Assembly: GCA_949001935.1 (NCBI GenBank)
Contig: CARJLX010000001.1
Span: 67,231-131,230 of the forward strand
Direction of reading: 5' to 3'
Source: an uncultured Eubacteriales bacterium
GTDB lineage: Bacteria; Bacillota; Clostridia; Christensenellales; UBA1242
Length of the DNA: 64,000 nt
In this document: positions 6,964 through 59,913 of the stretch, in pieces
Layout of the letters: each line of letters starts with the position of its first letter
Position numbering within the stretch: position 1 is the first letter of the stretch
Notes under the pieces: model-generated
Databases searched by the model: none
Told to the model about the DNA's origin: nothing
Seen by the model: only the letters and a program-made list of their open reading frames with translations
Position numbers and translations under genes: made by a program

Positions 6964-7232
6964 ACCGAGCTAGATGGGGAGTTAGCGGTGCCCTGTACCT
7001 GCAATCCGCTATAGCAGGGTTGACGATTTGTTTCGGTTTAAACTTTTTAAAAATGTGCGATTATTTTTAATGTTGAAGTCAAGGTCTTATGCAAGTAAAA
7101 TCTATGAACCAGGTCAGAGCCTGACGGCAGCATCCTTAAGTGGACACTTTACTGTGCCATAGGGAAGCTTTGGTGGAGTTAAAATTAGTCGAGGCAGTTG
7201 GGAAGTTTTTATCAACGCAAATTGCTCGGGCT
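6964..7232 (+). ncRNA. ffs: Signal recognition particle RNA, long Bacillus type with Alu domain (scRNA)
   Basis: GGGGAGTTAGCGGTGCCCTGTACCTGCAATCCGCTATAGCAGGG nearly matches the B. subtilis scRNA Alu-domain sequence as I remember it. The domain IV-like segment is ATGAACCAGGTCAG...GGCAGCA..TTAAGTG. The 5' CCGAGC pairs with the 3' GCTCGG, and the gene has its own promoter and terminator. Confidence 0.85.
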
Positions 7233-9565: not shown

Positions 9566-10771
9566 ATGGCAAGAGTAGATTGGGAATTTTTGCTAAGAAC
9601 AGACAATATGTTAAAGAAAGGATATTGGGACACTAACGACACAGTTAGAACAAAGTGGGAAGACGGAACACCTGCACACACTGTTAAAGGGTTTTCAGCC
9701 TACAACCTTTACGATATGAGAGAAGGTTTTCCAATTTCAACACTTCGAAAAATAAATGGGGATGCTGCAATTGATGAGGTTCAATGGATTTGGCAATTAA
9801 AGAGCAACAACGTTAAAGATTTGCATAGTCACATTTGGGATCAATGGGCAGACGAAAATGGATCTATTGGCAAGGCTTATGGTTGGCAAGTTGCACAAAA
9901 GTCAAAATACAGCTGGGGTGAAGCCGATCAAACAGATATGGTGCTTCACGAACTCAAATTTAATCCGGCTTCAAGAAGAATTCTTACAGAGCTTTTTAAG
10001 CATGAAGATTTGCATGCTATGAGACTTGAACCTTGTGTTCATGGAATGCAGCTTGATGTTGCTGGTGATACTCTCAATATGTTTTTAAATCAACGCTCAA
10101 ACGACACTTTGGCGGCTGGGAATTGGAATGTTGTGCAATATTCAGCACTTTTACATATGCTTGCGCAAGTTAGTGGATTAAAGCCAGGTGTTCTTGCTCA
10201 TGAAATTGTAAACCCTCATATTTATGACCGTCATGTTCCTTTCATTGTTGATATAACTCTTTCAAGAGCAAAGAAAATTGAAGAACTTGCAGGGGAAATT
10301 TTTCGATCAGGAACAAAAATGTGTAATGCTATATACAATATGACTGATGAAGAGGAATCGGCTTTTAAACTTTTTATTAATCAACTTGTAGATAGATTTG
10401 GTCATCCAGTTTCTTATAAAGATCTAATTAAACAAGCACAAGATTTAGAACTTGAAAATGATAAGCATGATGCAACATTCTACGAAAATTATGCAAAAGA
10501 GTTTGTAGAGACTCCACAATTTAAAAAAGCAGAATATATTGTTGAAACAATGATTAAGTATCCAGAGTTTGAAAAAGCTTTCAATTTCTGTTCTCCAAAG
10601 CTTATTCTTGATCCTAGCGTTACAAATTTCTATGATTTTAAATCACCACTCACAACAGACAAAGAAACTGGCAAGTTTGTTCCTAGTGAAGATAGTTCTT
10701 TCAAAGTTGAAGATTACAACTGGAAAGAAGAAGGAATCAAATTGCAATGTGCAGTTCCTGTGGCTGAATAA
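9566..10771 (+). CDS. thyA: Thymidylate synthase (ThyA, B. subtilis ThyA-like subtype) with large internal insertions
   Basis: Catalytic-Cys context LEPCVHGMQ, plus NQRSND, HIYDRH and C-terminal ...FYDF...FKVEDY...AVPVAE. At 401 aa it is much longer than the usual 264-320 aa. Confidence 0.8.
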   Translation: MARVDWEFLLRTDNMLKKGYWDTNDTVRTKWEDGTPAHTVKGFSAYNLYDMREGFPISTLRKINGDAAIDEVQWIWQLKSNNVKDLHSHIWDQWADENGSIGKAYGWQVAQKSKYSWGEADQTDMVLHELKFNPASRRILTELFKHEDLHAMRLEPCVHGMQLDVAGDTLNMFLNQRSNDTLAAGNWNVVQYSALLHMLAQVSGLKPGVLAHEIVNPHIYDRHVPFIVDITLSRAKKIEELAGEIFRSGTKMCNAIYNMTDEEESAFKLFINQLVDRFGHPVSYKDLIKQAQDLELENDKHDATFYENYAKEFVETPQFKKAEYIVETMIKYPEFEKAFNFCSPKLILDPSVTNFYDFKSPLTTDKETGKFVPSEDSSFKVEDYNWKEEGIKLQCAVPVAE

Positions 10772-12646: not shown

Positions 12647-14290
12647 ATGGGAACATTAAAAATTACAGAAGATGATATTACAAAAATTATTCTTGGCAGA
12701 GTTAATTCTGAAGCAGAAAAATATTGGATTAAGTCTATGATTCGAGCTTTGCCATCAACCTTAGAAGGCACAGTTGTTGAGGTTGCACCAATCGAAGTTG
12801 ACGGGGGAGGGAATTCAAAAGTTACTTTTGATAAATTCACTATTAATATTGAAGGCGAACTTGCTAAATATGCTGATGAAATAAACCAAGATTATGTAGA
12901 CATTATGTGTGAAATTCAACCTGAGTTTAAAAGGTTCTATGAAAAATCTATGGAAGCAATAGAAGAAAAGACTAGAATTTTTAAGCAAAGATTATTGGAA
13001 GAATTTAATAAAAATGGCTATGTAAAAAATGACATTAAATGTATTCTTACTGGCACTGGTGTTAAAGATTTAACTCAACGGTTAGAAGCTATTAAGCATG
13101 GCGAATTTATTGCACCGATTTCAAATAAACTTAATACCCCTAATAGAAAATTCGAGCAAGGTGAAGTTTATTATGCAAATTTAAATCCTGCTTTAGTCGG
13201 TGAATTTGCAGGAGTTAGGCCAGTTGTTATTGTTGCGTGTAATGATTTTTCACTCACAATTTTGCCACTAACAAGTAAATTGGAACAAAAGGGAAACGAA
13301 GAATATCATGTTTTAGTAAAAGCAGATAAATATGATGTTAAGAATTTTACAGATTCTATTGTTTGTACTGAAGTTGTCAAAACTGTCGATAAAAGTAGAA
13401 TTTACGGCAAGGTTTTGACTTTAGATGAAGAAGATACTAATAAAATTGTAGAATTAATGGGAAAACGACTTTTTGGTGACAAATATCTTGCTCCAAGTGA
13501 TGAGTATGAAGCTTATGATATTTTTAGCGAAGAAGAGGTAGAAAAATTTGAGCGTGAGCAAGAATTAGAAGAAAAAAAGAAGGCTGAACAAGCAACCTTA
13601 AAGCAAGATAAATCGCTTAAACCTTCAAATACATTCCATACAGTGGAAAAGTTTATCAATAATCCACAAAGTGAATGCACAATTGGTGAAATTTTATATG
13701 GGATTAAAGAAGAAAAAGTTGAGGACAAAAATTTTATATGTGTAGTAGATAATTCTGTAAAGAAAACGCCAGCAGTTATTTATGAATTGACGGATGAAGA
13801 AGCCATTCAAATTTGTGAACAAAAATTTGAGGGGATGAGAGCAAATGGTTCAAGATTATCTTTTCAAGATCCTATTGTTTTAAGTAATAATTCTCTTCAA
13901 GAAGGCATTAAAATTGCATATAACACAAAAAATGTTAATGGAAAAGAGGGGAAATATTACACAGAAATTTCTTTATCCTCATTTTATGGAACATATGAAT
14001 GCGGAAGTAAAAAAAATAATAATGATATGGATTTAACTTTGTATTTGGCTTCAAAAATGGTTGAAAAATATGGAGATCATTATAAAAACAATTTCTGTAA
14101 GAATTATGTTAAGTATTTTAATAGATTTTATGAATATAATGGTGATCTAAATAAAAATATTAATCTTTTAGATTACTTCTTAAGTTTTGTTGGCAAAAAA
14201 GCAAATAATTCAAATGAATTGGTTATCAATGGATTAAGTGCATATGATTATTATAGTCTAGAAGATATAACAGAAGACGTACAGCAATAA
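12647..14290 (+). CDS. Multidomain protein with an embedded MazF/PemK-like endoribonuclease domain (residues about 168-277 of 547)
   Basis: GEVYYANLNPALVGEFAGVRPVVIVA...ILPLTSK...SIVCTEVVKTVDKSRIYGKVLTLDEEDTNKIVELMGKRL matches the MazF/PemK pattern end to end. Unrecognised regions of about 165 aa (N-terminal) and about 270 aa (C-terminal) flank it. Confidence 0.7.
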   Translation: MGTLKITEDDITKIILGRVNSEAEKYWIKSMIRALPSTLEGTVVEVAPIEVDGGGNSKVTFDKFTINIEGELAKYADEINQDYVDIMCEIQPEFKRFYEKSMEAIEEKTRIFKQRLLEEFNKNGYVKNDIKCILTGTGVKDLTQRLEAIKHGEFIAPISNKLNTPNRKFEQGEVYYANLNPALVGEFAGVRPVVIVACNDFSLTILPLTSKLEQKGNEEYHVLVKADKYDVKNFTDSIVCTEVVKTVDKSRIYGKVLTLDEEDTNKIVELMGKRLFGDKYLAPSDEYEAYDIFSEEEVEKFEREQELEEKKKAEQATLKQDKSLKPSNTFHTVEKFINNPQSECTIGEILYGIKEEKVEDKNFICVVDNSVKKTPAVIYELTDEEAIQICEQKFEGMRANGSRLSFQDPIVLSNNSLQEGIKIAYNTKNVNGKEGKYYTEISLSSFYGTYECGSKKNNNDMDLTLYLASKMVEKYGDHYKNNFCKNYVKYFNRFYEYNGDLNKNINLLDYFLSFVGKKANNSNELVINGLSAYDYYSLEDITEDVQQ

Positions 14291-25388: not shown

Positions 25389-26329
25389 ATGAAACTTTTA
25401 GATGAAATTTTGAAGAAAAAAGAAGAGGTTTTCACAAGTTGTGGTGAAAATGTGAAAATTGATAGTATTATGATTGAGAACAATGGCGAGGTTGCTCAGC
25501 ATTTTTACAAACCTGATGGGCTGCATGAAATGAGAAGTATAAGCAAAGTTATGATTGCCTTAGCTTACGGAATTGCCATAGATAGGCAAATTCTTGGCGG
25601 GGGGGGTATCAGTTAACTCTTGATACGCTTGTTTATCCAATTCTTAAAGATTTGACTGAGATTAGAAATAAAGACAATATAGATAAAATCAAAAAGTGGA
25701 CGATTAAAACACTTTTAACTTATTCGGCTGGTTATGAAAACCAAATGTTTTCTAATAAATTTATCAAAGATATTTATCCTAAAAATTATGTTGAATATTG
25801 TTTAAACTACCCATTAAAAAATCAACCTAACACCAAATATGTCTATAACAATGCCGAACCCTTCTTACTTTCAGTTTGTTTTCAAGAATATTTTGGAATT
25901 AATATTAAAGATTTTATTGTAAAAGAAATTTTCAAACCTTTAAAAATTAAAGATTTTATCTGGAAAAACTACGACAAATATTGTCCTGGTGGCACTGGGC
26001 TTTATCTTTCTCACAAAGATTTATTTAAAATTGGGCAGTTGATTTTAAGCAAAGGAAATTTTGAAGGCAGGCAAATTATAAGCAAAAGATATATTGAACA
26101 AATGTGTTCAACGCAAATGCAAACTCCATATGCTGTAAAGCCAGAGAGGGTTTTACCAAAAGAAAGTGTCGGGCTTGTGATGAAAATTTCAAGAAATGGC
26201 TATGTCTTTAAGGATGCGAAAAATGGCCAATACTTGATTGTTAATTTTGACAAGAATTTGCTTATCACAATTTTGGCAAGTGAAAAAGAAATGCAGTTTG
26301 TGACTGAAATTTTGAGAGGAGTTATTTAA
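25389..26329 (+). pseudogene. Serine hydrolase (beta-lactamase/PBP-like family) interrupted by a frameshift in a G8 tract
   Basis: ORF 25389-25616 carries the SxxK motif (SISK). ORF 25652-26329, in another frame, carries YxN (YNN). The second frame stays open back to the G run at 25599-25606, and G9 or G6 would fuse the two into ...LGGG(G)YQLTLDTLVYPILKDL.... Confidence 0.75.
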
Positions 26330-55268: not shown

Positions 55269-56471
55269 ATGGCACAAGGTGTATTTAACAGAAATAAACC
55301 ACACGTTAACATCGGTACTATTGGTCACGTTGACCATGGTAAAACCACTTTGACCGCTGCTATTACTATGACATTAGCACTTAAAGGTCAAGCTCAAAAA
55401 ATGAGATATGACGAAATCGACAAAGCCCCAGAAGAAAAGGCTAGAGGTATTACTATTAATACTGCTCACGTTGAATACGAAACAGCAAATCGTCACTACG
55501 CTCACGTAGACTGCCCAGGACACGCTGACTACGTTAAAAACATGATTACTGGTGCTGCACAAATGGACGGAGCTATCCTCGTTGTTGCATCAACAGATGG
55601 TCCTATGCCTCAAACAAGAGAGCATATTCTTCTTGCTAGACAAGTAGGTGTTCCATACATCGTTGTCTTCATGAACAAAACTGATCAAGTTGACGATCCT
55701 GAACTTCTTGAACTTGTTGAGATGGAAATCCGTGACCTTCTTTCTAAATATGATTTCCCAGGAGATACAACTCCTATTATTAAGGGTTCTGCTTTAAAAG
55801 CATTAGAAGCTGCTCAAGCTGGAAACGCTGATGATCCTGCTTGCAAATGCATTTTCGAACTTATGGATGCAGTTGATTCTTACATCCCTGAGCCTGCTCG
55901 TGAAATCGACAAACCTTTCCTTATGCCTGTTGAAGATGTATTCACAATCACAGGTCGTGGAACTGTTGCTACTGGTAGAGTAGAAAGAGGACAAGTTAAA
56001 GTTAACGATACAGTTGAAATCGTTGGTCTTGGCGCTAACAAAACTACAGTTATTACTGGCGTTGAAATGTTCCACAAATCACTTGATGCTGCTATGGCTG
56101 GTGATAATGCTGGACTTCTTCTTCGTGGTGTTCAAAGAAACGAAATCGAAAGAGGACAAGTTCTTTGCAAACCTGGTTCAATTCACCCTCACACTAAATT
56201 TAATGCAGAAGTTTATGTATTGAAGAAGGAAGAAGGTGGTCGTCATACTCCATTCTTCAATGGTTATAGACCTCAATTCTTCATTAGAACTTGTGATATC
56301 ACAGGTGTTATCGAACTTGAAAAGGGTGTAGAAATGGTTATGCCTGGAGATAACGTTCGTATGACTATCTCTCTTATCAACCCTGTAGCCGTTGAACAAG
56401 GTATGCGTTTCGCTATCCGTGAAGGCGGAAGAACAGTTGGTTCTGGTGTTGTTTCTTCAGTTATTGAATAA
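55269..56471 (+). CDS. tuf: Elongation factor Tu
   Basis: 400 aa with GHVDHGKTT and DCPGHADY. Confidence 0.97.
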
Positions 56472-56473
56472 GT

Positions 56474-56648
56474 CTCATAGGGACAAGTAGAATTCTGACG
56501 CGGACAAGACCGCTAAAATTCGTTTTTCCCATGAACCCTTTTTCGCTTCTTGAAAAATCCCGCTGGGCATTTTTCGTCGAGTAAGGTGGCAAACAAATTT
56601 TTAGGGTCGGGCAAAGCTCTTCTTCCCATAAAAATTTGATTGCGAATT
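56474..56648 (+). repeat. Structured intergenic repeat, copy C (after tuf)
   Basis: GGACAAGTAGAATTC ... CTAAAATTCGTTTTTCCCA ... CTTGAAAAATCCCGCTGGGCATTTTTC ... CAAATTTTTAGGGTCGGGCAAAGCTCTTCTTCCCATAAAAATTT. Confidence 0.8.
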
Positions 56649-56780
56649 TAAAATAGAAATAAAAACACAAGACGCTTTGCGTCTATAAATAAAATATTAG
56701 AAAATAAAACTTGTACATTTGGCGTTTATTTATCTTTTGATAGGTTTTTGCGATGTAAAATAAAAAAATATGCATATATA

Positions 56781-56817
56781 AATAAACATGCTTGTGGTTG
56801 GGCATGTTTATTTTTTA
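56781..56817. terminator. Hairpin terminator between tuf and the convergent acyltransferase gene
   Basis: Hairpin AAACATGC-ttgtggttgg-GCATGTTT followed by a T-run. Confidence 0.6.
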
Positions 56818-56820
56818 TTG

Positions 56821-57801
56821 TTAAATTTTTGATATGATAACCTTTATTGTCTTGATGCTTATAAAGGCTAGAAATGCTGTTAGAATTATTATTGTAATCA
56901 AGTATAATAAAATATTGAACGCTAGATTTTGTGTAATATTTAATAGTGATAATGCTCCAACTGCAAAAATATGATGTGATAAATATATGTAAAAACTGTA
57001 TTTATCACTATAAATTAATATTTTATATGTAGGTTTATTATTTAAAAATTCAAAAGCGATTAATATTATAAAGGAAAATGTTAAAGCGAATATAACTGCA
57101 CAAATTCGTTGGAGAAAAAGTGAAAGGTGGTACAACATAAAAGTATTTTGAGGAAAGCAATGTATAAAGTACATAAAGGGTAAAACAGTTATTAGAAAAA
57201 TTAAAATGCAGATAAAAATGCTTTTATTTTTTTGTTTATAAACTTTTTCTAAAGTTTGAAACCTACTTAAAGCAAATCCTATTACAAAGATAATAATTCC
57301 TAATTGCATACTTGTAAACAAGCAAATGATTGTTTCAAGAATTAAAAATATACTTAAAAATACTATTGCAAGTTTGTTATATTTATGGGATTTATCAAAG
57401 GCAATTTTTATCAATGGAAGTATGAGATAACATATAAATATATTTGGTATAAACCATAGGTGTCCTAAGGCAAACAATTCTGAGGATATATAACTCCACC
57501 AGTTTAAAGGATTTATTGCATTAGTGGCAAAGATTGTACAGAGGAAAAATTCTATTAAACAGAGAAAAAGTACAGGAATAAAAATTTTAATTGCTCGATT
57601 TAAATAAAATTTTTTAATATTTTTTATTTCAATTTTTTCATATAAATATCCACTTATAAAAAAGAAAACTTGAACTCCAAAATATAAAGGTATTATACCC
57701 GCACCTTTCCAGGGGCTAAGAATCATTAAAATATGATAAATTACAATCATAATTGCCGACAAACATCTTAGCACACTGACATTATTTAATCTTTTGTTCA
57801 T
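56821..57801 (-). CDS. Membrane acyltransferase, family 3 (OafA/YrhL-like O-acyltransferase)
   Basis: 326 aa with about 10 TM segments. The N-terminal LRCLSAIMIVIYH motif is typical of acyltransferase_3 proteins. Confidence 0.75.
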   Translation of the reverse strand: MNKRLNNVSVLRCLSAIMIVIYHILMILSPWKGAGIIPLYFGVQVFFFISGYLYEKIEIKNIKKFYLNRAIKIFIPVLFLCLIEFFLCTIFATNAINPLNWWSYISSELFALGHLWFIPNIFICYLILPLIKIAFDKSHKYNKLAIVFLSIFLILETIICLFTSMQLGIIIFVIGFALSRFQTLEKVYKQKNKSIFICILIFLITVLPFMYFIHCFPQNTFMLYHLSLFLQRICAVIFALTFSFIILIAFEFLNNKPTYKILIYSDKYSFYIYLSHHIFAVGALSLLNITQNLAFNILLYLITIIILTAFLAFISIKTIKVIISKI

Positions 57802-57837
57802 AAAAAATTTGCTCCCTCAAACAACTTATTCACAGTC

Positions 57838-57865
57838 AGTATATTGCGGGGGGGGGACTTGTCAA
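57838..57865 (-). promoter_or_regulatory. Acyltransferase promoter with a C9 homopolymer in the -35/-10 spacer
   Basis: The minus strand reads TTGACA-agtCCCCCCCCCgcaa-TATACT (16-nt spacer), then GAGGGAG and the ATG at 57801. Confidence 0.6.
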
Positions 57866-57940
57866 GCAAAAATAAAAAATAGTTGTAAAAATTTGCAAAA
57901 ACAATTTAATTATGATAAAATATTATCATCGAGGTTTATT

Positions 57941-58309
57941 ATGAGTTGGATGGATTATATTTTTAAAGCACTGGGATTTGAAAGTGAAGAAAAGAAAAAC
58001 AAAACTGTTAAGAAAAAGACCAGAGCGTCTTATAAGTTAAAAAACGGCAAAGCTCAGGATAGAGTGGAAGAGATTGATGGTATTCCTGTTTATTATCCCG
58101 AAAATTTTATTCAAGCTAGAGAATACACTGAGTTTTTAAAAGATAAAAAAGCGGTTATAATATCTACTGATCTTTGTGACAAAGATGACCGTGACAGAAT
58201 ATTAGACTTTTATAATGGTGTAGTAGCGGGCATTGGTGCAAAGTTCATTGTATTAGATGAGGGCAGACTTTATTTACTTTTGCCTGAGGGGTGTGAAGTT
58301 GAAGAATAA
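57941..58309 (+). CDS. sepF: Cell division protein SepF
   Basis: Start at ATG 57941, behind GAGG. MSWMDYIFKALGF..., and the C-terminal domain (PENFIQAREYTEFLKDKKAVIIST...DRDRILDFYNGVVAGIGAKFIVLDEGRLYLLLP) fits the SepF pattern. Confidence 0.8.
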   Translation: MSWMDYIFKALGFESEEKKNKTVKKKTRASYKLKNGKAQDRVEEIDGIPVYYPENFIQAREYTEFLKDKKAVIISTDLCDKDDRDRILDFYNGVVAGIGAKFIVLDEGRLYLLLPEGCEVEE

Positions 58310-59024
58310 AAAACTTAATATATGCAACATATTAATGTTATCTTTTTTGGCTTTTGCTTTAATTTTTGATTTAGTTACTAAGTATGTGATTGAAGGAAAG
58401 ATGAAATTAGGGGAGGAGGCAAGTTTTCTTCCTGGTTTTATGAATTTTGTTATTGTTCATAATGATGGTGCTGCTTGGAATTTATTTTCAGGCTTTCAAA
58501 TTTTGCTTATTATTGTCACAGTTATATTTTTGATAGTCTATTTTTGGTTTTTCTTTTCAAAAAAGTCTAAATCAAATCTATTAGGCATTGCTTCTGGACT
58601 TCTTTTAGGTGGTTGCATTGGAAATCTATATGATAGAATTTTTCTTGGCTATGTTCGCGATTTTTTAAATTTTCAATTTATGACTTTTCCTGTTTTTAAT
58701 ATAGCAGATGCAAGCCTTTGCATTGGCGTCTTTTTGCTTGCGATATATTTTATATTTATCTATCCTAAAGAGCTTAAAAAAGAAAAAGAGGAACTTGAAA
58801 AACAGGGCATAAAAACTGATGGCAATGGTGAAGTATATACTGATGACCTTGACAAAATAAAACAAAAGAAAACTAATATTAAAGATTTATTAAATATTAA
58901 AAAACTTATTGGCAAGCACTCTAAAAATGGTAAAAAAGAAGCTGTTAATATTGAAGTCAGCAATGAAGTAATAACTAAGGAAGATAAAGTAGAGAAGACC
59001 AAGGAGAAAGAAGATGGAAGGTAA
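58293..59024 (+). CDS. lspA: Lipoprotein signal peptidase II with a Lys-rich C-terminal extension
   Basis: Motifs HNDGAAWNLFSG and FNIADASL. A tail of about 85 extra charged residues follows. The start is probably GTG 58293, behind GAGGGG. Confidence 0.85.
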   Translation: MKLKNKKLNICNILMLSFLAFALIFDLVTKYVIEGKMKLGEEASFLPGFMNFVIVHNDGAAWNLFSGFQILLIIVTVIFLIVYFWFFFSKKSKSNLLGIASGLLLGGCIGNLYDRIFLGYVRDFLNFQFMTFPVFNIADASLCIGVFLLAIYFIFIYPKELKKEKEELEKQGIKTDGNGEVYTDDLDKIKQKKTNIKDLLNIKKLIGKHSKNGKKEAVNIEVSNEVITKEDKVEKTKEKEDGR

Positions 59025-59913
59025 AATTATTGTACCTCAGGAAGTTAAGGGGACTAGATTAGACCTCTTTCTTTTGTCGCAATTTGCAAATTTTACTAGG
59101 GCTTATATTAAAACCCTTATTGAGAACGGAAGTTTTAAAGTGGATGAAAAAATTGTAAAGGCGGGGTTGCCACTTAAAACAAATATGGTTATTACATATA
59201 AAATAGAAGAGGCTAAACCCTTGGATGCAGTTGCTGAAGAGGTTGAATTTGATATTGTTTTTGAAAATAAAAATTTGCTTGTTATAAATAAGCCTCAAGG
59301 ATTAGTAGTTCATCCATGTTCATCAACAAAAAATAACACCTTAGTAAATGGATTACTTTCAAAAGTCAAGGATTTAAGTGGGATTAATGGCACTCTTAGA
59401 CCTGGCATTGTTCATCGTTTAGATAAAAATACTTCTGGGTTAATGTTGGTGGCTAAAAATGATGTTGCTCATCTTTCACTTGCAAAGCAGATTCAGGACA
59501 AGACTTGTAAACGCAAATATTTAGCTCTTCTTGAAGGTAATTTAAAGCATGAAGAAGGAGAAATTATAACTCAAATAGGAAGAAATCCAAAAGATCGTAA
59601 AAAGATGGCTGTTCTACAAGATGGTGGAAAAGAAGCGATAACAACTTATAAAGTTGTGAAACGCTATCAAAAGTTTTGTCTTGTAGAGTTTTCACTAAAG
59701 ACAGGCAGAACTCATCAAATACGCGTCCATGCAAGCTTTTTAGGACATCCAGTTGTAGGTGATGATATTTATGGCAAGATAAACAAAAGTTTGAAGGGGC
59801 AACTGCTTCATTCTTATTATATAGAATTTGATGAGCCTGTATCTAAAGAAAGATTGCATTTTGAAATTGGACTTCCATATTACTTTGAAAAATTTATTGA
59901 AAGGTTGATTTAA
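59014..59913 (+). CDS. rluD: 23S rRNA pseudouridine synthase RluD-type (S4 domain plus RluA catalytic domain)
   Basis: 299 aa with HRLDKNTSGLML and GRTHQIRVH. It follows lspA in the usual synteny. Confidence 0.88.
   Translation: MEGKIIVPQEVKGTRLDLFLLSQFANFTRAYIKTLIENGSFKVDEKIVKAGLPLKTNMVITYKIEEAKPLDAVAEEVEFDIVFENKNLLVINKPQGLVVHPCSSTKNNTLVNGLLSKVKDLSGINGTLRPGIVHRLDKNTSGLMLVAKNDVAHLSLAKQIQDKTCKRKYLALLEGNLKHEEGEIITQIGRNPKDRKKMAVLQDGGKEAITTYKVVKRYQKFCLVEFSLKTGRTHQIRVHASFLGHPVVGDDIYGKINKSLKGQLLHSYYIEFDEPVSKERLHFEIGLPYYFEKFIERLI

Follow-up and report, generated by a model that had tools for sequence, protein, structure and literature searches.

A run of nine cytosines lies between the predicted −35 and −10 hexamers of a gene for a membrane acyltransferase of family 3 (AT3), in a 64-kb stretch of DNA that was analysed as a whole and is referred to here as the window. 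Its position raises the question of whether the run is a passive spacer or, as a preliminary description of this DNA had proposed, a slipped-strand phase switch. The answer that we consider likely is that the C9 run is the part that varies within the spacer of a housekeeping-sigma promoter (sigma-70/SigA-type) driving the stand-alone AT3 gene, and that slippage of the run switches this gene. Probably, it is an on/off or dimmer switch for surface modification, of the classical slipped-strand type.

The tract is C9 on the minus strand, at positions 57856-57848 (G9 on the plus strand), where the minus-strand letters are CCCCCCCCC. The elements of the locus, together with the one RNA gene recognised in the window, are listed below.

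57865-57860, minus strand: −35 hexamer TTGACA, 6/6 consensus, invariant in 7/7 aligned intergenic regions
57859-57844, minus strand: 16-nt spacer agt-C9-gcaa (agt 57859-57857, C9 57856-57848, gcaa 57847-57844)
57856-57848, minus strand: C9 homopolymer, the variable element, with a length of 7, 8, 9 or 10 in orthologous contigs
57843-57838, minus strand: −10 hexamer TATACT, 5/6 consensus, invariant in the seven-region alignment
57832-57830, minus strand: predicted transcription start, about 7 nt past the −10 hexamer, giving a leader of about 30 nt (from standard promoter geometry)
57818-57812, minus strand: Shine-Dalgarno-like GAGGGAG, 10 nt before the ATG (from the sequence; the lineage with 83% identity has GACGGGG there)
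56821..57801, minus strand: AT3-only membrane acyltransferase gene, 326 aa (Pfam PF01757 and PHROG 3333)
56684-56670, minus strand: terminator-like hairpin and T run, 3′ of the acyltransferase gene (sequence scan)
57893..57921, plus strand: divergent promoter-like site TTGCAA-17-TGaTAAAAT for sepF-lspA-rluD (consensus scan)
6965-7229, plus strand: large (Bacillus-type) SRP RNA (Rfam, 164 bits), the sole Rfam match in the window

Reading of the sequence, together with a consensus scan, returned the hexamers, the 16-nt spacer, the Shine-Dalgarno site and the start codon described previously. GAGGGAG and the ATG (57801-57799) are where they had been placed; the distance of about 30 nt given for the ATG was too short, as 37 nt separate it from the −10 hexamer. 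TTGACA-16-TATACT matches 11 of 12 consensus positions and is the top-ranked site between positions 56500 and 58400. It is also the only strong minus-strand site within the 139-nt intergenic region, and weaker promoter-like sites are present farther upstream on this strand.

The run itself is exceptional for the DNA in which it lies. At 33% G+C, the window contains only three G/C runs of at least 6 nt (G6, G8 and G9). The G6 belongs to a ribosome-binding site, the G8 occupies positions 25599-25606, and the G9 is the only run of at least 9 nt. Between about 0.02 (independent bases) and 0.03 (first-order Markov) G runs of at least 9 nt are expected per 64 kb, in agreement with the earlier statement that composition makes a G/C run of nine improbable. 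As in promoters of the porA/opc type, discussed below, the tract has a length at which slippage can be expected (about 8 or more), exceeds what composition predicts and sits in the −35/−10 spacer of a sigma-70-type promoter that immediately precedes a gene. The paired GATC sites of Dam/OxyR-dependent promoters of the gtr/oafB type are absent, the 139-nt intergenic region having no GATC; a methylation-type switch was excluded on this ground.

The product of the gene is a member of the AT3 family, as had been proposed. It matches Pfam PF01757 (Acyl_transf_3) over residues 8-311 (E 1.2e-31; 110.4 bits versus a cut-off of 31) and PHROG 3333, ‘O-acetyltransferase’, over its full length (E 7.7e-16). 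The R-X10-H motif, which defines AT3 domains and is absolutely conserved in their first transmembrane helix (PMC9833829), is present as R12 and H23, both invariant in the family alignment. The FFFISG region is also present and a fused SGNH domain is absent. At the RXXR position, in the third transmembrane helix, the protein has R69-A-I-K72, with Lys replacing the second Arg; homologues have RLAK, RITR, RFYK or QCTK. Hydrophobicity analysis yields 11 overlapping Kyte-Doolittle peaks, or about 9-10 segments by this crude method, for an AT3 expectation of about 10 helices. With its R-X10-H motif and FFFISG region the acyltransferase looks functional, and its open reading frame (ORF) is intact and conserved in all relatives. 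The gene has 24% G+C, compared with 30-40% in the neighbouring genes. No G/C run of at least 5 nt occurs inside the ORF, only A6-A7 and T6 runs of a kind common in AT-rich DNA, and an intragenic repeat tract of the oafA/icaC type is accordingly missing.

Two homologues of 26-30% identity (P0005 and P0006) are encoded inside glycosyltransferase/polysaccharide operons. This context fits O-acylation of a surface polysaccharide, the presumed substrate. No solved structure was found among the sequence relatives. Viral contigs scanned with the family alignment contained no relative, and a phage-borne gene finds no support despite the PHROG O-acetyltransferase match. Direct or inverted repeats flanking the gene were limited to AT-rich low-complexity matches, none of them convincing, and thus give no evidence of a mobile cassette.

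The acyltransferase gene is the only minus-strand gene among plus-strand housekeeping genes, with rpsL, rpsG, fusA and tuf on one side and sepF, lspA and rluD on the other; the window as a whole has a strong coding-strand bias and purine skew. The tract promoter and the sepF promoter stand back to back without overlapping, the tract being 37 bp upstream of the sepF −35 hexamer. The Rfam search gave no match near the locus. Gene order, the large SRP RNA, the strand bias and the purine skew point to a host of Firmicutes type with low G+C. Ferredoxin, NifU-like and GGGtGRT-family proteins encoded in the window suggest that this host is an anaerobe.

Comparison of window positions 55269-59913 with contigs L106, L108 and L109 revealed a mosaic. 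In L106, the segment comprising tuf, the intergenic region and the AT3 gene is 99.4-99.7% identical to the window, sepF 93%, and lspA and rluD 78-80%. Such a pattern points to a recombination breakpoint within or close to sepF, or to diverged backgrounds having exchanged the segment from tuf to AT3. Separately, a 17.7-kb Logan contig (L001/L002) ends at about window position 56426, in the 3′ end of tuf and 395 nt beyond the AT3 stop codon. The ends of Logan contigs L004 and L108, and that of L005 from the 83% lineage, likewise fall within the tuf 3′ end or shortly before it. A second tuf copy may be breaking these short-read assemblies.

The protein is rare. A word-indexed search returned seven relatives, and a scan of species-representative genomes with the single protein returned none, so that either the host species or this gene is missing from that set. 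The contigs of the relatives and of their cluster members were compared with the window, a contig being called window type when its AT3 belongs to the same 90%-identity protein cluster. The most diverged of the window type is L108, with 95.8% DNA identity in the gene. L001 and L002 are one contig, which has 100% identity to the window and was not treated as an independent case. The tract reads as follows in each contig.

Window and L001 (identical), window type: C9, spacer 16
L106 and L107 (two JGI samples), window type: C9, spacer 16
L108 (SRR20820550), window type: C10, spacer 17
L004 (SRR35536352) and L109 (ERZ14864032), window type: AG-C7, spacer 13
L003 (ERZ13657770), window type: contig starts 1 nt before TATACT
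L005, 83%-identical orthologue: C9, spacer 16
L006, 83%-identical orthologue: C8, spacer 15
L007, 40%-identical homologue: TTGACA-gtg-C14-TATGCT, spacer 17
L110, 40%-identical homologue: C13, spacer 16
L111, 40%-identical homologue: contig starts inside the run

The preliminary description had made its proposal depend on a tract that is not invariant across strains. Related contigs from other samples carry 7, 8, 9, 10, 13 or 14 C's, differences that were observed between samples. Length variants are present in all three lineages, and the C-run is never interrupted in the relatives. Several contigs are of low coverage (2.5-8x) and C13 and C14 are hard to call by short-read sequencing; some of the differences could be errors. 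Two assemblies (L003 and L111) break at the tract, which is only suggestive of variability within populations.

Variation in length is confined to the run, in close relatives whose flanks are collinear. The window differs from L004 (over 1.8 kb) and from L109 (over 2.5 kb) by a sole indel, at the run. Between L005 and L006, one C is the sole indel in 1,948 aligned nt that contain 12 substitutions. The difference between C14 in L007 and C13 in L110 is the sole indel in 6,739 nt, and the surrounding 5.3 kb are without any substitution. Thus, in all three close pairs the tract is the only indel in 1.8-6.7 kb. An alignment of seven intergenic regions shows both hexamers to be invariant, and within the promoter gaps occur only in the run. 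One further 1-nt gap sets the 83% lineage apart from the window lineage in the 5′ leader, whose sequence, unlike that of the hexamers, also differs between the two.

The spacer is 16-17 nt long in 7 of the 10 contigs with a readable run. This length is built differently in different lineages, from 9-10 C's and 7 fixed bases in one case and from 13-14 C's and 3 fixed bases in the 40% lineage. Clustering at 16-17 nt is the pattern that selection on spacer length would predict. The AG-C7 allele is a 3-nt deletion (the T and two C's) and not a simple one-unit slip. It is common to two samples (L004 and L109) that also share SNPs, and is therefore a fixed lineage allele and not proof of rapid switching. 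C9, in turn, is shared by three diverged backgrounds, so the run does not change at every opportunity.

The 40%-identical homologue belongs to another genome, of 42% G+C, and to another gene neighbourhood, in which a terminator immediately precedes it and no gene is transcribed divergently. Its promoter in L007, TTGACA-gtg-C14-TATGCT, matches 10 of 12 consensus positions with a spacer of 17 nt. At L007:3854-3898, the ATG with which the essential R-X10-H N-terminus is restored follows the −10-like TATGCT by only 13 nt and lacks a Shine-Dalgarno site; its mRNA would have almost no leader. Because of this short distance and the missing Shine-Dalgarno site, the promoter model is less secure in the 40% lineage. 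Gene callers took later starts there, with products of 291, 245 and 213 aa. A hexamer CATAAT is also present 8 nt farther downstream, where 17-nt spacing would arise only with C6. Among more distant homologues, P0004 (32% identity) is preceded by a promoter region of its own in which no G/C run occurs, and the gene of L026 (36% identity) is directly behind another gene. The promoter-type run is thus confined to the clade of the window and the 40% clade.

From this arrangement, we infer an active promoter, expression that would depend on tract length, and switching that would be frequent and reversible within a single population. Slipped-strand mispairing at replication would add or remove C's, and each gain or loss would alter both the distance between the −35 and −10 hexamers and their rotational phasing. 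C10 would give the optimal spacer of 17 nt, C9 a near-optimal one of 16 nt, representing the ON state captured in the window, and C8 a weak or dim promoter with 15 nt; the assignment of C10 and C9 as ON states follows from analogy with porA. Transcription of the acyltransferase, and with it the degree of surface-glycan O-acylation, would differ from cell to cell in a heritable but reversible way. In the AG-C7 allele, a 13-nt spacer would disable TTGACA, and an overlapping TTGCTT is then exactly 17 nt from the −10 hexamer. This allele may be a low-level state with weak activity that is not fully off.

Could the promoter instead be static and constitutive, with length differences that are neutral polymorphism or homopolymer sequencing or assembly error, and no switching at all? 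We regard this as unlikely, although several observations are compatible with it: C9 occurs in the window, L106, L107 and L005 alike, although the genes next to it are only 78-83% identical; coverage is low for several of the contigs with variants; assemblies may break at homopolymers for technical reasons; and AG-C7 is a fixed allele. However, a neutral spacer offers no reason for an uninterrupted homopolymer of 9-14 nt to be conserved across 17% and 60% protein divergence, with 0.02-0.03 such runs expected by chance, and a static promoter leaves unexplained why length variants occur in all three lineages and are the sole indels in kilobases in close pairs. AG-C7 was assembled independently from two samples, and is hence not an error. 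Most spacers, moreover, are kept at 16-17 nt through different combinations of run and fixed bases.

A different role for the run is improbable, be it as a regulator site, as rigid poly(dG).poly(dC) affecting the sepF-lspA-rluD promoter or as an anti-Shine-Dalgarno element in a longer transcript. The run is indeed only 37 bp from the divergent −35 hexamer, weaker promoter-like sites do exist farther upstream on the minus strand, and folding of an 86-nt region is predicted to pair three of the C's in the run with the GGG in GAGGGAG. Yet this fold is no better than those of shuffled sequences (z = 0.26; 116 of 200 shuffles do as well or better), for which reason anti-Shine-Dalgarno pairing was rejected, and the run would not be transcribed from the predicted promoter. 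The 40% lineage has the same design after a terminator, without a divergent gene or a G-rich Shine-Dalgarno site, indicating that the run travels with the acyltransferase promoter and not with sepF. Slimmer still is the chance that the hexamers merely match the consensus by accident in AT-rich DNA, the gene being transcribed from elsewhere or silent and the run having no regulatory role. Such matches are common here, with 17 promoter-like sites in the 1.9 kb scanned versus 12.8 expected, but the tract site is the only one to reach 11/12 and the only one on the correct strand inside the intergenic region. Both of its hexamers are invariant while the leader diverges, and the ORF that it precedes is intact in all relatives. 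Thus, as far as sequence alone can tell, the proposal of a slipped-strand switch in the promoter spacer is supported.

Runs of G also occur in distant members of the family. Scans with the family alignment identified 94 loci with distant homologues (23-36% identity; 515 kb), most of which originate from gut and rumen metagenomes; among the genome records that carry a name are Bacteroidales, Prevotella, Muribaculaceae, Christensenella, Ruminococcus, Acutalibacteraceae and Bacilli. Thirteen G/C runs of at least 8 nt occur in these 515 kb, all of them poly-G on the coding strand. Eight lie inside the queried AT3 gene, which represents 21% of the sequence (p = 0.0017). Two others are in AT3 paralogues, two in hexapeptide-repeat acetyltransferases and one in an ORF without a family, so that 12 of the 13, G8-G10 in length, are in AT3 or hexapeptide-repeat acetyltransferase genes.

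L014:3318-3325, L105:3207-3215, L022:1888-1897, L051:3403-3412: intragenic poly-G
L076:3120-3127, L093:2983-2991, L098:1679-1687, L074:1239-1246: intragenic poly-G
L029:4581, L061:264, L051:2586, L076:1698: further poly-G, in AT3 paralogues or hexapeptide-repeat genes

The poly-G runs are typically followed by TAA or TA, and a slip in at least one direction therefore meets a stop within a few codons. An example is provided by L014 and L105, where the run is at the same codon position, just before KGLGHLWF: with G8 (L014) the ORF is intact, whereas with G9 (L105) it is split. The AT3 enzyme family is thus a recurrent target of repeat-mediated switching. The run is placed within the gene in the distant homologues, and in the promoter in the clade of the window and the 40% relative. 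A bolder reading, which we advance tentatively as a possibility, is that the AT3 gene and its poly-C-spacer promoter have been conserved as one unit over tens of percent of protein divergence, having been moved between genomes or having evolved twice, and that genes for polysaccharide O-acetyltransferases are preferred carriers of G/C-run contingency switches in uncultured gut and rumen bacteria. On this reading, promoter-spacer runs are used by the window and the 40% relative, and intragenic poly-G followed by stops by the distant homologues, several of them in Bacteroidales and Prevotella.

Textbooks describe promoter switches driven by repeats in mycoplasmas and a handful of Gram-negative pathogens. 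We know of few documented cases from low-G+C gut commensals and of none that concerns an AT3 acetyltransferase. The known AT3 switches use intragenic repeats or DNA methylation. In Mycoplasma hyorhinis vlp, the system closest in phylogeny (low-G+C Gram-positive lineage), the promoter spacer that sets expression of a surface component is poly-A rather than poly-C. In Bordetella fim, a poly-C run likewise sets expression of a surface component, but it is located between an activator site and the −10 hexamer, unlike the −35/−10 spacer of the window. The opc tracts of Neisseria meningitidis have 12-14 C's, resembling C13 and C14 of the 40% lineage, and the icaC repeat of Staphylococcus aureus is inside the gene.

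In N. meningitidis porA, poly-G lies between the −35 and −10 hexamers, and 11G gives high, 10G intermediate and 9G low expression (PMC3639595). The window resembles it in having a G/C homopolymer of similar length (9-11) as promoter spacer; it differs in that porA encodes an outer-membrane porin of a Gram-negative pathogen and that switching, experimental there, is deduced here. For opc, PMC5084427, citing Sarkari et al. 1994, states that the promoter poly-cytidine sets expression via promoter size; the poly-C promoter is the shared feature, in another phylum and gene class. Haemophilus influenzae oafA encodes an AT3 O-acetyltransferase of lipooligosaccharide (LOS) with repeat-mediated phase variation and effects on immunity (PMC9558356; PMC11868660), but its repeat is a tetranucleotide in the reading frame that acts as a translational on/off switch, whereas the window has a homopolymer in a promoter spacer. 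S. aureus icaC is switched by slipped-strand mispairing (PMC4117637), is reported to have TTTA as its repeat motif and is called an O-succinyltransferase (both PMC8987812), and is treated in a review of AT3 proteins (PMC9558356). Like the acyltransferase considered here it is a Gram-positive, polysaccharide-modifying membrane protein; unlike it, icaC belongs to the ica operon and is switched by frameshift rather than by transcription. Salmonella OafB/GtrC (AT3) is phase-varied at the promoter level by an epigenetic mechanism (PMC9558356). OafB is also a stand-alone AT3 enzyme, an O-antigen acetyltransferase encoded outside the main glycan cluster, but its switch depends on DNA methylation, and the intergenic region of the window is devoid of GATC. 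A limited literature search found no report that joins AT3 phase variation with a promoter-spacer homopolymer, and no paper on the sample accessions. Both parts are already known, AT3 phase variation by other means (oafA, icaC and OafB) and the spacer of the porA/opc type; what is new is the host and the gene.

Other features of the window deserve mention. Its second-longest G/C run, the G8 at 25599-25606, splits the gene of a beta-lactamase-family serine hydrolase (25389-26329, plus strand) into a 75-aa N-terminal ORF with a SISK motif and a 225-aa ORF. With G9 there would be one ORF of 313 aa, and with G6 one of 312 aa. The restored ORF can be aligned from end to end, including the parts before and after the run, with intact homologues about 311 aa long (at most 71% identity). 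This run is a candidate for a second contingency locus, in its OFF state, or the gene may be a pseudogene or the split a sequencing error. Elsewhere, a 547-aa ORF (12647-14290, plus strand) contains a PemK/MazF-like toxin domain at residues 170-268 and is far longer than the usual stand-alone MazF toxin. In a 401-aa ORF (9566-10771, plus strand), the thymidylate synthase domain covers only residues 15-237, and the C-terminal segment of about 160 residues has no family match.

Surface-glycan O-acylation governs phage adsorption and antibody recognition. If the switch is confirmed, an uncultured gut-type bacterium would vary the O-acylation of its surface glycan stochastically, and the length of the run, C7-C10, would be a simple marker from which on/off dynamics in vivo could be read in existing metagenomic reads. 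Should acetyltransferase genes also prove to be preferred carriers of such runs, O-acetylation would rank among the main surface traits that commensals switch by means of repeats, and metagenomes would show it directly.
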